From: Gammaproteobacteria bacterium
GTDB taxonomy: Bacteria; Pseudomonadota; Gammaproteobacteria; UBA1113
Direction of reading: 5' to 3'
Length of the DNA stretch: 64,000 bases
Assembly: GCA_020051155.1 (NCBI GenBank)
Contig: JAGVJK010000005.1
Coordinates: forward strand, 3,312-67,311
Positions within the stretch are counted from its first letter, which is position 1. Each line of letters opens with the position of its first letter. Made by a program: the position numbers. Shown piece after piece: positions 1 to 9,000 of the stretch.

Positions 1-3000
1 TCCTATGGCCGTTGATTTAAGTGGATTATCGATTACTGATCCTTGCTTAGGCTGGGAACAAACAGAAGAATTTTTATTGCGCTTAGCAGGTGAACGTTCA
101 TGATAACCTTTGGTATAGCGGGTGACCAAGGTTCTTTTTCTGAGGAAGCTGCATTAAAATATGCGCAAAAAGCAGGATTTAATCCATCTTTAGTTTATTT
201 AATTGATATGGAAGGCGTATTAGCAGCGCTTGAGCGTGGTGACGTGCAGCAAGGAATTTTTCCCGTAGTCAATCTCATTGGTGGTTTAGTTAAACCCGCA
301 TTTAAAGCGATGGGCAAGCATTTATTCACACCGGTAGATGAGCTCTGGTTGGAGATCCAACAATGTTTGTTAGTGCAGCCTGGTATGAGGCTTCAGCAAA
401 TAAAAAATATTGTTTCTCATCCCCAGGGTTTATTACAATGTGAAAATTATTTAAAGAAAACATTTAAATCAGTGGATAAACTTCAGTGGATTGACACAGC
501 GAAAGCAGCGAGAGATTTAGCTGCGGGACATCTACCACCTTTTTCAGCGGTCATTGCTCCCGAGCATTCAGCGCAAGTCTATGGATTAGAGGTATTAGAA
601 AAAAATATTCAAGACAAAACACCTAACTTAACGGCGTTTATTATTGCAAAACAATACGAAGCAGGAGAGCCCTAATGGCAAGTATCGAAAGCTTAAGAAA
701 AAAGATTCAACGAATCGATGCGGGTATCATTAAAAGAATAGCGAAACGGCAAGCGCTTGCAAAAAAAATTGGACAATTAAAAGCGCAAGAAGGAAAAGAT
801 ATTGTTGATCTATCTCAAGAGGAAAAATTATTTAAGTTTTATGAACTCTTATGTGCAAAGCACGGATTGCAATCTTCCTTTATTAAACAATTGTTTCAAA
901 GCATCATTGCTTATTGTAGAAAGATACAAAAATTTTAAGCGAAGTCACAAGGCGTTCAATTTAGTATTGATTTTCTTTGCTTCTCTAGCGTAGAATGACT
1001 CCCTTTAAAAAAGTTAATAAAAACAGGGAACCAAGTATGTCTGCCTCACGATTACTGTCTCTTTTATCGGGTTTTCGAACTGTAAATAGATTAAAAAATA
1101 CACCTGACGCGTCTTTAATCTCAAATAATTTGGCAAGAGTACCATTTGTTACAGAAGCTTTTTCATCTTACTCAACAGATGCAGATAGATCTGGATTAAC
1201 TTATTTAAGCCGCCCTCATAGTGATTGTGGTGTTGGTGTTTTTGTCAATTTAACAAGAGAGTCTACAACAAATTTAGTACAAGATGCGTTAAACTATTTA
1301 GCAGGAATAAAACACAGAGGTGCAGAAGGTGCGGGCAACACAAAAGATGGTAGTGGCATTTTGCTTTATGGCGGGCTTGATCATTTTGTAAGAAAAGAAT
1401 TTCGTGAAATTCCAGAGCAATATGCTTTATTACACGTCGCGCTTCCCAAAAATCCAGAGGCACGTCAAAGAACAGAAGAATTACTCGAACAAGAAGCGAA
1501 ATTAGCAGGCTTATCATGGGGCGAAAGTCGTGCGGTGCCTGTGCGTTCAGAACACTTAAGTCTGATCGCAAAAAATCATGAAATGGATTATATGCAACGA
1601 TTAATGCCAATGCCGGAATCCCTAAAACCTAGAGTGTTTGATCAACAATTAATAAAACTTCAATTACGTTTTGAGCAGCAAGTGCATCAGCGCAAGCAGC
1701 AAGAAAGATCTCATATTTTAAGCTTAAGTCGATCTCATATTGTTTTTAAAGGGATGATTGATGAAGAAAAGCTATCCAGTTATTTTCCAGATTTAAATCA
1801 GCCACACTGTTCAGCCATGGCAGCAATTATCCATTCTAGATTCGCTACCAATGCATTACCAGAATTATATAAAGTTCATCCTTTTTCTAATATTGCGATG
1901 AATGGTGAAAATAATTCAAATCGATTATTAGTAAATTATTTGATGCACAATCTCAATGTGAAAAAAATGTTAGGATTAGAACAACTTGATTTCACCGGTT
2001 ATAGTGATACCGCAGTACTATCCTTTATGATGTCTTATTTACAATTATTGGGTGTGCCAGCTAAGACCATCTTAGGTTTTGGTTTTCAAAAATATTATGC
2101 TCCAACAAAAACTGCAACAGAAAAATATTATAATATACTAGGAAGAATTCCCAATGAAGGTCCTAACCATAGCGCCATACTCTTAGGCGAAGAACTGTTT
2201 ATTGTACGTGATCCACTTTCCTTGCGTCCTCAACGTGGCGTAGTAAAAAACAATAATGAATATTTCTTTTCTGGGTCAGAGTTGCCGAACTGGAATAACT
2301 TATCAGAATATACGGAGTTTAGTTTACCTGCAGCAACGCCTTTATTGATAGATCTGAAGACTGGAAATGTTGATTTGATGAGTTTAGATGAATCAGTTAA
2401 ACAGTTGCACGAACAACAAATCGCACAGTTGATACGTTTAAATGTCATGTCTCAAGATACGCCACCGCCCATTTTTTTCTCTTTCGAAGAGTTGCAACAT
2501 CGTAAGTATCAAGCAGGATGGACGCAAGAGTTTAATAAAGCTATCATGCAACCCTTATTACAAGATGGTCAAAACAATCGGAGCTCAATGGCCGATCAAT
2601 CTCCCATAGAAATGATGGTTTCTCATGAAAGATTAGACATCTATCATTTTTTTAAAGCGCGATTTGCACAGGTAACTAACCCGGCAGTTGCACGCTATGA
2701 AGAGCAAAGCTATTTATCAACGGAAGTGTTTATTGGTCGTAAACCTTCTTTGTTAACGTTAGACCAAGCATTGTTTGAAACACCAGGAATTTTATTACAA
2801 GTGCCAGTGGTTGACTCACTAGAAAGATTGCAACTGCAGCAACTATTACCCACGGTAGTGTTAGATATCACTTATGAAGTGGCGAGTTTAGAACAAGCGC
2901 TGTTAGTTAAATTGGCTGAGTTACGCCAAGCAGCTATCGATGCAGTTAAAGCCGGAGCGGCATTGTTAATATTAAGTGACCTTGTCGTCCAAGAGAGGCA

Positions 3001-6000: not shown

Positions 6001-9000
6001 AGGTATTGGTGCCATTGCCGCGGGTGTTGTGAAGGCGGGAGCTAATATCATTAATATAGCGGGTCCGGGTGGCACGGGGGCTGCGACATATTCAGCACTT
6101 CATGATTTAACATATCCTTGGGCTGTCGCACTCAGTGAGGTGCATCAAACCTTGACGAAAGAAGGATTACGCCAGGGCGTGAAATTGCAAGTTAGTGGCG
6201 GCTTGCAAACTGCAGAAGATATTATAAAGGCCATATTATTAGGGACTGACTTTTTAGAGTTTGGAACAGCGATACTCATTGCGCAAGGATGTGTAATGGC
6301 GCGTTCTTGTCATAACAATGATTGTCCTACCGGTATTGCTACCAACAACCCAAAATTGATAGAAGAAAAATTTAAAGGGTCTGCTGAAGATATCGCACGC
6401 TGGGTAACTGAATTAGCCATTTCAACAGCGGTGATATTAGAACAGTATGGATTTAAATCGCCTCAAGAGGCGGTAGGGCGTACGGATTTATTAATGTTAG
6501 ATAAAGACGCAGCAGATGGTTTTGAACAGTTATTGCATCGTCCTAAAAATCCTTATTTCGCATTTTCCCTACCGCGAGGCGAAGGCGGAAGTGATATTGA
6601 ACGAGCGACTATTGTAAGAATCGCAGAAGGCGAGCGAACATTGTCCGTTCCCGTGGATCCGAGAGTTTTATCCTTCGGTGCGTTGTTATCTTACTATGCA
6701 GCAATGAAAGAGAACCCAGATTTTTCTCGCGTTATTTCCGCGGAAGAGAGTCCAGTGACTTTATGCTTAAATGGAACACCGGGACAGAGTTTAGGTTTTG
6801 CTTTGCATAAAGCTTTTTTATTATTGGTAGAACGCGCTCATGATGGTACGGGAAAATCCTTAAGTGGAGGCCATATCATGGTTAATGGTAATGTGGGCAA
6901 CACCACTGGTTTCGCTGCAACGAAGGGGTTCATTGCGGCTCGATATTCAGCTGATCGGACGTTTATTCGCGCTAGTGGTGTAAAAGGGGTATTTGAAAGT
7001 ATTGGTGATTTTGGCGCGAATTTTATGACGGACGGCACGTTGATTATTTTAGGCAGGCCAGAAGATTATCATTTGACGATTCCCTCTTATCGAGTTCCTA
7101 CTTTATATCGGCCTACCGTAGGGAAAAATTTCGGTGCCGGTTTTCAAGCAGGTACCGTGGTGATGCCAAAAGCACTTTATGCAACGTGTTTAAAAACACA
7201 TGCTTTTGCGCCAGATTTTCAACAACATGCGCAACAGATACCCATCAGCGAAGAGCTTCAGTGTGAAATAATGACTTATTTGCAACAATTTAATCGGCAT
7301 ATTGATAGTCCGTTAGCGAGGGCAGTAGAACAATTGTTGGAAAACCCGGAGGCGATTCACCATTATTTTTGTGTTTTAACGCGGGAAGTGCCAGCGCCAC
7401 AAATGCGATTGCGTTGAGGCACCTGGATATTAGCCCAGGGCTGGTCAAATTTGACACAGATATAAATGCTATGCTACCATGCGCCCCACGAGGCTTCTCT
7501 TAAATCAAAGAGGAATACAATCATGGATATGTCCTTAGCTTCAATAAAAGCTAGAATGAGTCAGCACCCTATTGAGTTTGTGTATGTGAAAGATAAAAAT
7601 TCTCACTATATCGAAGCGAATGATTTCTTTTTATCTTTTAATGGCCTTTCTCACGGGGCTCAAATCCGTGAAAAAACAGATTACGATTTACCTTGCTCTG
7701 AGTTTGCCGATAGATATATCCACGATGATCGGATAGCTATGACAACCGGGGATCTTCGAACCTTTGAACCAACAAGAGGCATTGATGGCCAGGTCGTTTT
7801 ACTGCTAAGCCTCAAGTATCCTTTTCTTGATCCAGATACCCAACAAGAGGGAATCATTGGTTTTTCAAAAATCATTCATGATCGCTCTCTTCACACTTTG
7901 CTACCTGTTCTCAATGCAGCAGAAAAACAACAACTAAAAATCAGTGACGCTCTATTTGGAACGACAGTTAATCAACATACCTTAGCGCCGCTTACTGAAC
8001 GTGAATTGGATGTTTTATATTATCTATTGCATGGCTTAAGTTATAAAAAAATAGCGGAGCAGTTAAATTTATCAGTTAGAACCATAGAAGATTACATTGA
8101 GCATATCAAGTATAAATGCCAGTGTAACAGCAAGTACGCACTTTTTGATTTCGCTATTCATCATGGTTTAATGAGCATTATTCCAAAACACATGCTGCAT
8201 TGTCGTGCTCATGTGGAATAACACCGAGCGTTTTCAATTTAGAGGTAATATGTCATGGGTCCTGTAACTATTCGAAACGTGATAGATCATTATCCGGGGC
8301 TGGTTTTCATGAAAGATAAAGAGTCTCGCTTTATTGATGCCAATCAATCTTTTATAAAGAGTGCAGGATTTAAAAACATTGAGCAAATGCGTTCTTTAAC
8401 CGATTATGAAATGCCTTGGTGCAATTTGGCGAAAGAGTATATTAAGGATGATCAAACAGTCATAACAGAGGGTTGTTTGTTGTCAATAGAACCATTTAAA
8501 CATTGTAATGGTCATCACCAAGTTTTGTTTACACAGAAGTCTCGATTTATTGATGAGCAGACACAGAGTGAAGGTATTGTTGGATTTGCTACAGCCATGG
8601 AATGGAATAACATCAAAGCAATGATCCCAATGAACATCGAGAAGGATTTACCAACCTTAAAAATCAGTGATCAGTTATTTGATTTACTGATAGAAAAATT
8701 TTCGCCTCAAGCTTTGACAAAACGAGAGGCGGAAGTATTTTTTTATTTATTGCATGGATTGAGTTATCGACAAATTGCTAATCAATTAAATTTATCAATG
8801 CGAACTGTTGAAGATTATGTAGAAAAAATAAAAGATAAGTTAAGATGTGATAATAAGCAGCAACTTATAGAGATTGCTATTAGTTGTGGTTTAATTAATG
8901 TTATACCTGAGCAAGTGTTTAAAAAAATTGTTACGAAAAAGCTTATTTAACTGATTTCACAAGGAGCGGCGCATGTGGTATCGCACAAAAGTTTCTGAAT

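Follow-up and report, generated by a model that had tools for sequence, protein, structure and literature searches.

A predicted two-chain glutamate synthase with a fused adrenodoxin reductase/ferredoxin module in a gammaproteobacterial contig

We analyzed a 64,000-nucleotide stretch of contig JAGVJK010000005.1 (assembly GCA_020051155.1, Gammaproteobacteria bacterium; positions 3,312 to 67,311, forward strand), referred to below as the window. Two adjacent genes near its beginning, ORF1 and ORF2 (ORF, open reading frame), probably encode together a two-chain NAD(P)H-dependent glutamate synthase (GOGAT, or GltS) of an undescribed architectural class, as judged from sequence comparison and predicted structures. 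Glutamate synthases are sorted by their electron input: NADPH-GltS uses the GltD subunit, Fd-GltS a free ferredoxin (Fd) and the eukaryotic NADH-GltS a fused GltD, with archaeal forms as a further group. In the window pair, the place of GltD would be taken by a flavoprotein related to adrenodoxin reductase (AdR) and by a [2Fe-2S] ferredoxin related to adrenodoxin (Adx), both fused to the end of ORF1. The features of the two genes are the following.

995..5287, + strand: ORF1, 1430 aa; propeptide, glutamine amidotransferase (GATase), central domain, AdR-like reductase, tether, [2Fe-2S] ferredoxin
995..1225, + strand: poorly conserved leader or propeptide before catalytic Cys78, presumably removed to expose the N-terminal nucleophile (Ntn) cysteine
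1226..2284, + strand: class-II (PurF/Ntn-type) glutamine amidotransferase (Pfam GATase_2, aa 78-430, E 6e-42)
2507..3340, + strand: glutamate synthase central domain (Pfam Glu_syn_central, aa 505-782, E 7e-49)
3350..3658, + strand: link segment with conserved R..W and W motifs (family alignment A1, below), probably a remnant of the canonical linker between the central and the flavin mononucleotide (FMN) domain
3659..4864, + strand: FprA/adrenodoxin-reductase-type flavoprotein for FAD and NAD(P)H, identified by phmmer, Foldseek and invariant motifs
4865..4999, + strand: low-complexity tether from reductase to ferredoxin (pLDDT about 29-35), variable in length and sequence in the family
5000..5284, + strand: adrenodoxin/putidaredoxin-type [2Fe-2S] ferredoxin, predicted ligands C1367, C1373, C1376 and C1411
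5333..7417, + strand: ORF2, synthase subunit, 694 aa; FMN/[3Fe-4S] domain and GXGXG beta-helix domain
5498..6454, + strand: FMN-binding synthase (TIM barrel) domain (Pfam Glu_synthase, E 1e-97)
6290..6325, + strand: predicted [3Fe-4S] ligands C-x5-C-x4-C (C320, C326 and C331, counted from the ATG), matching the cluster cysteines of canonical enzymes in the alignment and unchanged throughout the family
6746..7159, + strand: C-terminal beta-helix domain (Pfam GXGXG, E 9e-18)

Domain architecture of ORF1 and ORF2

An earlier reading of this DNA, made from the sequence alone (the sequence-only reading), had described ORF1 as a GltB-type Ntn amidotransferase, with its Cys codon at 1226, that continues through the central domain, switches at about nt 3660 to an AdR- or FprA-like flavoprotein and ends in an Adx/putidaredoxin-type ferredoxin; the FMN/[3Fe-4S] and GXGXG domains were placed on the next ORF, 45 nt downstream. 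All parts of this description were borne out. The profile-HMM scan that it had proposed detected GATase_2, Glu_syn_central, Glu_synthase and GXGXG, whereas Pyr_redox_2 and Fer2 stayed below the Pfam cut-off for the single sequence.

The reductase region carries the motifs VCVMGGGAAGFY at 3671, GLISDGVSPDH at 3782 and GFIIGSGNVAIDIARILL (the NADP motif) at 4121. In phmmer searches it matched Mycobacterium tuberculosis FprA (1lqt, E 4e-26) and bovine AdR (1cjc, E 2e-24), and the Bacillus subtilis GltD-type small subunit only with E 0.56. An AlphaFold model of ORF1 residues 701-1430 (pLDDT 68 overall, 70-90 across the reductase) was compared with known structures by Foldseek: the reductase resembled FprA/AdR with TM scores of 0.70-0.73 (E 2e-26), against 0.46 for GltD. 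The motifs GxGxAG, GDG.APDH and GxGNVAxDxxR were invariant in A1, an alignment of family members that spans the end of the central domain, the link, the AdR and the Fd modules. A GltD homologue as the fused flavoprotein was rejected on the GltD comparisons just given and on a score of 30 bits with the NCBIfam gltA/GOGAT_sm model.

The ferredoxin tail was marginal as a single sequence (Pfam Fer2 19.7 bits, cut-off 21; terpredoxin E 0.03). It contains the motif CGGKCVCGSC at 5093-5122, and its four cysteines, in the pattern C-x5-C-x2-C-x34-C, were invariant in a 24-member alignment (A2). The A2 profile matched Arx, FdVI, terpredoxin, putidaredoxin and adrenodoxin over their full length with E-values from 6e-10 to 2e-8, and an AF2 model of the domain (pLDDT 92.8) gave TM scores of 0.7-0.78 to terpredoxin, Arx, putidaredoxin and Adx. 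The module pair at the C-terminus of ORF1 is a classical AdR/Adx-type redox couple.

Proteins are denoted below by P numbers and loci by L numbers. Two stand-alone proteins, P0120 (549 aa) and P0126 (539 aa), fuse an AdR-like domain to a C-x5-C-x2-C ferredoxin and scored about 180 bits with the family profile. The module that GltS captured may have come from fusions of this type. In locus L002, an 872-aa protein with Fer2, Pyr_redox_2 and Rubredoxin_C domains (7724..10342, - strand) adjoins a permuted family member.

To assess the catalytic residues, 71 canonical large subunits, of the bacterial NADPH-type and the eukaryotic NADH-type with some of the Fd-type, were aligned with the nine family members then known, and each column with a conservation of 93% or more in the canonical set was checked in the family. 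Cys78 of ORF1 aligns with Cys1 of mature GltS (1ea0, 1llw), and the D-[AS]-C-G motif around it is kept in all members. In B. subtilis GltA the N-terminal Cys is needed, the C1A variant being inactive (bioRxiv 10.1101/2021.04.12.439528). Also kept family-wide are the glutaminase residues R108, D118-G119, R179, Q201, H280-x-R282-x-x-T285-N286, P296, N303-G304-E305-x-N307, S337-D338, R411-P412 and S428-E429. The sequence MNGENNS at 1898, where canonical enzymes have HNGEINT, had been taken by the sequence-only reading to leave room for a reaction other than GOGAT. These are weak grounds, since N-G-E-x-N is preserved, including the oxyanion Asn-Gly and the Glu and Asn that follow, as are the core glutaminase residues; a changed 2-oxoacid acceptor is nevertheless conceivable in the window lineage (see below).

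For ORF2, the same comparison found S74, G76, H83, S-N-x-G-E-G-G-E (E110/E113), Q128, K150, Q153, K156, K167, R176, S186, D192, S-I-E-D (S195, E197), K218, K234, G-T-G-A, E269, R280, D296 and the three [3Fe-4S] cysteines in all members. Missing catalytic residues, which the sequence-only reading had named as an objection, were not found: the core glutaminase and synthase residues and the cluster cysteines of both the [3Fe-4S] and the ferredoxin are conserved. By our own transfer of numbering, the kept ORF2 residues presumably include the equivalents of Synechocystis E903, Q969, K972, R992, S1011 and E1013, residues to which imine formation, 2-oxoglutarate binding and loop-4 signalling are ascribed.

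The central domain of ORF1 could be aligned to GltS structures in the PDB up to residue ~745. On either side of the place that the central-to-FMN linker takes in canonical enzymes lie the link (aa 786-888) and the N-terminal ~56 residues of ORF2; ORF2 residue 57 aligns with position 873 of the canonical profile. In P0007, in which both halves form one chain, the link matched canonical profile positions 810-862 weakly, with marginal E-values of 0.007-0.18. The NCBIfam large-subunit model NF008730 (cut-off 1047 bits) was covered by ORF1 at positions 10-746 (247 bits) and by ORF2 at positions 854-1384 (380 bits), and neither the single scores nor their sum reached the cut-off. These low scores fit a divergent sister clade to canonical GltS.

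The NCBI gene call starts ORF1 at the in-frame ATG 1037, which gives 1416 aa. This start is slightly favoured because a weak -10-like TAGAAT, detected in a promoter scan of positions 1..9500, overlaps ATG 995. The ORF listing puts the start of ORF2 at GTG 5297; the true one is ATG 5333, which follows the Shine-Dalgarno sequence AAGGA, and both the NCBI call and the relative with 92% identity (below) have 694 aa from this ATG, which leaves a spacer of 45 nt between the genes. The scan found no terminator between the genes and 27 promoter-like sites, with 26 expected. The source contig, 135,295 bp long, is present in IMG as well as in NCBI, and the automatic IMG name of ORF1 is 'glutamate synthase domain-containing protein 1/ferredoxin'.

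Family, layouts and selection

A word-indexed search returned P0001, a relative with 92% identity and the same split, and six proteins of 1,640-2,205 aa with 33-34% identity, all metagenomic. The A1 profile was run exhaustively on 1.84 billion representative proteins, and about 20-25 clusters (at 50% identity) matched it over its whole length. Full-length members scored above 400 bits; the scores then dropped sharply to stand-alone FprA/AdR proteins of ~450 aa, with at most 200 bits. Among the matches listed in an A1 search of genome contigs, one was a true member (L005) and one an FprA-like gene (L006). The members fall into four layouts.

Layout A: [GAT-central-AdR-Fd] + [FMN-GXGXG]; window, P0001, P0099, P0113
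Layout B: GAT-central-AdR-Fd-FMN-GXGXG, the order of A in one chain; P0006, P0007
Layout C: circularly permuted FMN-GXGXG-GAT-central-AdR-Fd, ~2,100 aa, the majority; P0002, P0004, P0005, P0097, P0098, P0100, P0101, P0103-P0110, L005 gene
Layout D: [FMN] + [GXGXG-GAT-central-AdR-Fd]; P0003/L003

The L005 gene (5801..12145, 2,114 aa) comes from a metagenome-assembled genome (MAG) of Gammaproteobacteria. One layout-A member, RAP32559.1 ('hypothetical protein'), is encoded in a single-cell genome of Candidatus Marinamargulisbacteria, and the family therefore crosses phyla.

In all members, whatever their layout, the AdR-Fd pair comes directly after the central domain. Since this order recurs in independent assemblies, the junction near nt 3660 is real. 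The C-terminus of the layout-C proteins corresponds to the end of ORF1 and their N-terminus to the start of ORF2, so that the boundary between ORF1 and ORF2 is not a frameshift; this correspondence also argues that the two proteins would function together. The sequence-only reading had seen an enzyme cut at the boundary between the central and FMN domains. The split is indeed present; it is not a local accident but one of four interchangeable layouts of two functional halves.

In layouts C and D the chain has ~320-960 residues in front of the catalytic Cys, in layout C alone ~720-960. Given the requirement for a free N-terminal nucleophile, these chains would have to mature by proteolysis, probably autocatalytic. 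In the permuted forms the cleavage would release the FMN-GXGXG half as a giant 'propeptide'.

Selection was estimated as the ratio of nonsynonymous to synonymous rates (dN/dS) against the 92% relative in locus L001. For whole genes the ratio was 0.092 (ORF1) and 0.054 (ORF2); by module it was 0.019 for FMN, 0.058 for GATase, 0.059 for central, 0.057 for AdR and 0.146 for Fd. Relaxed values were found in the 77-residue leader (0.38) and in the AdR-Fd linker (0.38). A working enzyme whose propeptide is putatively removable and whose tether is flexible should show such a pattern. The linker was also the part of the ORF1 model with the lowest confidence.

These data bear on the suspicion that the arrangement is an artefact or a decaying gene, the former as a chimera joined at ~3660 during assembly (a concern also of the sequence-only reading), the latter as a longer fusion that a frameshift has split into a pseudogene. 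The one-chain relatives do show that both ORFs can form a single chain, and the single-sequence Pfam scores of Fer2 and Pyr_redox_2 are below the curated cut-offs. A chimera was nonetheless ruled out, as more than 20 independent clusters, obtained from different samples with different assemblers (Logan, JGI, ENA and NCBI assemblies), share the junction, and no composition break was found at 3660. A split pseudogene was likewise ruled out: the split recurs in L001 (92% identity), P0099 and P0113, ORF2 starts at an ATG of its own behind a Shine-Dalgarno sequence, the ends of the permuted fusions match the ORF1 end and the ORF2 start, and dN/dS is 0.05-0.09. The conservation and selection data already refute this explanation, to which we attach next to no probability.

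Within the FMN domain, family members share 42-55% identity among themselves and ~42% with canonical sequences. In a neighbour-joining tree the nine members were monophyletic and sister to all 71 canonical sequences. The loop after GEGGE, the site of the Fd-GltS-specific insert, has 10 residues in every member, mostly 15 in canonical enzymes and 33-36 in the Fd-type. ORF2 scored 324 bits against the alpha subunits of the NADPH-type (the best PDB match, E 1e-95) and 273 bits against Synechocystis Fd-GltS. The sequence-only reading had interpreted the pair as a ferredoxin-type GltS that captured its own redox modules. This derivation was rejected: the Fd insert is absent, the family lies outside the 71 canonical sequences as their sister clade, and the NADPH-type scores better. 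On this placement the family is a separate deep lineage with what appears to be a different electron-input solution.

Three Streptomyces proteins (P0075, P0077 and P0079; ~1,840-1,850 aa), named 'glutamate synthase-related protein', contain ~270 extra residues between the central and FMN domains, with no match to AdR or Fd.

Proposed reaction and alternative explanations

In the mechanism that we propose, ORF1 would be processed before Cys78, and its Ntn amidotransferase would hydrolyse L-glutamine. A tunnel made up of the central and FMN domains would carry the ammonia to ORF2, and there 2-oxoglutarate, bound at the FMN, would be turned into 2-iminoglutarate. At the end of ORF1, NAD(P)H would deliver its electrons to the FAD of the FprA/AdR-like module, from which they would move singly to the tethered adrenodoxin-type [2Fe-2S] domain. 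Swinging on its flexible linker of ~45 residues, this domain would reach the [3Fe-4S] cluster of ORF2, which would reduce FMN; FMNH2 would then reduce the imine to L-glutamate.

The canonical path runs from FAD through two [4Fe-4S] clusters to [3Fe-4S] and FMN, and in Fd-GltS free ferredoxin feeds the [3Fe-4S] cluster (Vanoni 2021, PMC8097209); a [2Fe-2S] donor to this cluster thus has a precedent. GltD, too, consists of an AdR-like flavoprotein, in its case with an N-terminal domain carrying two [4Fe-4S] clusters (PMC8097209). The AdR-Fd module, which would take the place of GltD, is thus built in parallel from a member of the same flavoprotein superfamily, but bears another kind of Fe-S carrier, at the opposite end. 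The proposed mechanism would combine two known elements (PMC8097209), a pyridine nucleotide as the input, as in NADPH-GltS, and entry by way of [2Fe-2S] to [3Fe-4S], as in Fd-GltS.

Several observations weigh against an ordinary NAD(P)H-dependent GOGAT. The family departs from canonical GltS at many otherwise invariant positions. In the reductase, the 2'-phosphate motif of AdR, 'GRRGP', is reduced to x-R-[GS]-x-P with one Arg kept, and with this partial retention either NADPH or NADH may be the preferred donor. In the ferredoxin, the helix between the third and fourth Cys has a net charge of +1, compared with -3 in two reference Adx-type ferredoxins. The basic recognition helix suggests a co-evolved docking surface; because it is not acidic, docking cannot be modelled by analogy with Adx-type ferredoxins. 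Finally, six further changes of the FMN domain occur in the window/P0001 lineage only (ORF2 N79, R81, G133, N136, A191 and A264; nt ~5567-6124), at positions where the 71 canonical GltS show no variation and the other family members keep the canonical residue. The change at A191 breaks the P-P-P-H-x-D motif, and that of R to G133 falls in the 'SGRFG' motif. Four of the changes form charge-balanced pairs (E to R81 with R to G133, H to A191 with E to A264), possibly a sign of compensation, possibly of a changed substrate pocket. The FMN domain that carries them is under the strongest constraint of all modules.

The helix charge also bears on another view of the AdR-Fd module, namely that it is a general NADPH:ferredoxin reductase/ferredoxin system (for Fe-S assembly or P450s) fused by chance, or a redox sensor or regulator of the amidotransferase, while the synthase receives its electrons from free ferredoxin or from a GltD encoded elsewhere. 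The recognition helix unlike that of classical Adx-type ferredoxins, the existence of stand-alone AdR-Fd fusions of ~540 aa (P0120, P0126) and the coverage of this genome by the 64-kb window only are all in its favour. No gltD-like or second gltB-like gene was detected in the 64 kb, however, when GltD-type C-termini and canonical GltB were used in tblastn (only ORF1 and ORF2 were returned), and Pfam scans of the other large window ORFs found no gltD; the absence of gltD claimed by the sequence-only reading thus holds for the window. Neither gene flanks any of the relatives examined, and gltD is a neighbour in no member (loci L001-L004, L007-L009). Across phyla, no member and no layout has the module anywhere but after the central domain, and the module is under selection as strong as that on the catalytic domains. 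A fused one-electron carrier beside an enzyme with a one-electron [3Fe-4S] entry point is most simply read as the electron donor of that enzyme, and we consider a chance fusion or a regulatory role very improbable.

The six FMN-domain changes raise the question of the acceptor, which is connected with the genes in front of ORF1.

100..675, + strand: prephenate dehydratase (PDT), 191 aa, lacking an ACT domain; upstream, possibly co-transcribed, not part of the enzyme
675..938, + strand: chorismate mutase CM_2 (CM), 87 aa, overlapping PDT by ATGA; upstream of ORF1, possibly co-transcribed

In L001 (1427..3302) the same PDT-CM order is found with a DAHP synthase in front; the content of the region before the window is deduced from this locus. 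As read from its domains, the PDT-CM block is a split P-protein without the feedback domain, and this regulator-less pair is upstream in the window lineage only. With the same machinery, the window enzyme could reductively aminate an aromatic 2-oxoacid, phenylpyruvate, and so make phenylalanine with nitrogen from glutamine and without an aminotransferase. ORF1 and ORF2 lie directly behind the ACT-less PDT and CM_2 on the same strand, with DAHP synthase first in L001; the six substitutions, R to G133 among them, are confined to this lineage; the family is a deep, divergent branch; and L003 has a DAHP synthase 7 kb away, while an HPPD-like gene adjoins the member in L004. Against this, K156, R176, Q153 and E110, which presumably contact 2-oxoglutarate or catalyse imine formation, are conserved in the window lineage too, and the paired changes look compensatory. 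Adjacency to aromatic genes is not family-wide (an arginine cluster in L005, carAB in L004, unrelated genes in L002, L007, L008 and L009), and it would fit GOGAT as well, glutamate being the amino donor in phenylalanine synthesis. An aromatic acceptor is unlikely on this balance. Less likely again is a reading that joins it with maturation, in which a regulator-free aroG-PDT-CM-ORF1-ORF2 operon would end in a glutamine-dependent 'phenylalanine synthase' acting on phenylpyruvate, the six substitutions being the specificity switch, and the permuted relatives would cleave themselves at the internal Cys, their ~780-residue 'propeptide' being the synthase subunit.

Relation to known systems and genomic context

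If the two-chain GOGAT is as proposed, the window pair shares with NADPH-GltS (GltB and GltD; Azospirillum brasilense 1ea0/6s6s, B. subtilis 7mfm) the four alpha-subunit domains, the catalytic residues, the C-x5-C-x4-C cluster motif and a predicted pyridine-nucleotide donor acting through a flavoprotein of the AdR superfamily. It differs from NADPH-GltS in having neither GltD nor [4Fe-4S] clusters and in the FprA/AdR type of its flavoprotein. Its carrier is a tethered C-terminal Adx-type [2Fe-2S] domain, where GltD has an N-terminal interface domain with two [4Fe-4S] clusters; in the family the module is attached covalently after the central domain, and the alpha chain is split or permuted.

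Fd-GltS of cyanobacteria and plastids (Synechocystis 1llw/1ofd) is alike in that a [2Fe-2S] ferredoxin would feed the [3Fe-4S] cluster with no beta subunit. Fd-GltS uses a free plant-type ferredoxin, however, whereas that of the window is fused, of the adrenodoxin/putidaredoxin class, and provided with its own NAD(P)H reductase; the window FMN domain also lacks the Fd-GltS-specific insert. Eukaryotic NADH-GltS, too, carries a reductase in the same polypeptide as GltS domains, but there it is a GltD homologue with 4Fe-4S motifs placed after GXGXG (Pfam strings of P0056-P0063), and in the window an AdR-Adx pair placed after the central domain.

In Methanocaldococcus jannaschii, an ORF of ~490 aa carries a ferredoxin-like domain with two [4Fe-4S] clusters on the synthase domain, and the other domains are on separate ORFs (PMC2483277). 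The archaeal enzymes thus resemble the window pair in spreading the domains over several polypeptides and in fusing an Fe-S carrier to a GltS domain (PMC2483277). Their carrier is of the [4Fe-4S] bacterial-ferredoxin type, is attached to the synthase domain and comes without a fused NAD(P)H flavoprotein, whereas that of the window is a [2Fe-2S] Adx type after the central domain. As a precedent for splitting GltS and fusing an Fe-S module to it, this archaeal ORF comes closest.

The AdR/adrenodoxin and FprA/ferredoxin pairs of mitochondrial and bacterial class I P450 systems and Fe-S biogenesis (1e6e, 1lqt) have the same two folds in the same order. The window pair differs in that both folds are joined to one another as well as to an amidotransferase, that the electrons would end in a 3Fe-4S/FMN enzyme and not in a P450, and that the recognition helix of the ferredoxin is net basic, theirs being acidic.

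A 2021 review of Fe-S flavoenzymes names only GltD-type and free-ferredoxin inputs (PMC8097209), and full-text searches of the literature found no description of an AdR/Adx-fused glutamate synthase, in agreement with the remark in the sequence-only reading that the architecture was not recognized as described. No functional annotation was found either, the public names of the members being 'hypothetical protein' or generic domain labels. What appears to be new here is a self-contained AdR/Adx electron-input module, together with split and permuted layouts, in a rare and uncharacterized enzyme of the GOGAT family.

If confirmed, the pair would add a class to GltS in which the two [4Fe-4S] clusters of GltD are replaced by one tethered [2Fe-2S] cluster fed by an FprA/AdR-type flavoprotein. 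The [4Fe-4S] clusters of GltD are of low potential and oxygen-sensitive. The family would represent a natural experiment in the rewiring of an Fe-S flavoenzyme whose chemistry is not overturned, and a self-contained system, free of the alpha-beta interface, in which to study the control of glutaminase activation by electrons arriving at the [3Fe-4S] cluster. The AdR-Fd-GltS arrangement could serve enzyme engineering as a fusion template leading from NAD(P)H to the enzyme, and the permuted chains, with the catalytic Cys ~780 residues inside, are a test case for Ntn maturation. Purely as speculation, the occurrence of the family in uncultured Legionellales-like bacteria and in Marinamargulisbacteria might reflect low-iron or oxidising intracellular niches.

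The SdhA protein of the window shares 75-78% identity with proteins labelled 'MAG: Legionellales bacterium' and 72-73% with those of Rickettsiella, Candidatus Berkiella and Legionella. The neighbours of the family members are carB-argF-argG-argH and argS in L005, carAB and the HPPD-like gene in L004, the distant DAHP synthase in L003 and unrelated genes in the four other loci already named. The shared theme of amino-acid and nitrogen metabolism is the one expected of a glutamate supplier.

Downstream of ORF2 are three paralogous regulators with PAS and LuxR/GerE domains (7466..8221, 8255..8950 and 10772..11485), the first two of which occupy the same position in L001. The window also encodes a leucine-catabolism cluster, relA, gltA-sdhA-sucAB and giant ankyrin-repeat proteins. 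Ankyrin repeats are found at 22927..28155 (1,742 aa), 35496..36716 and 11598..12500, and large ORFs with no Pfam match at 28821..32540 (1,239 aa), 33280..35433 (717 aa) and 60702..62660 (652 aa). The ankyrin proteins and the large unmatched ORFs appear to be candidates for effectors that an intracellular Legionellales bacterium directs at eukaryotes. At 42520..43392 (- strand), a predicted 3'-5' exonuclease resembling the PolB exonuclease (PF10108, E 5e-91) adjoins a TRAM/U5-methyltransferase gene and relA.

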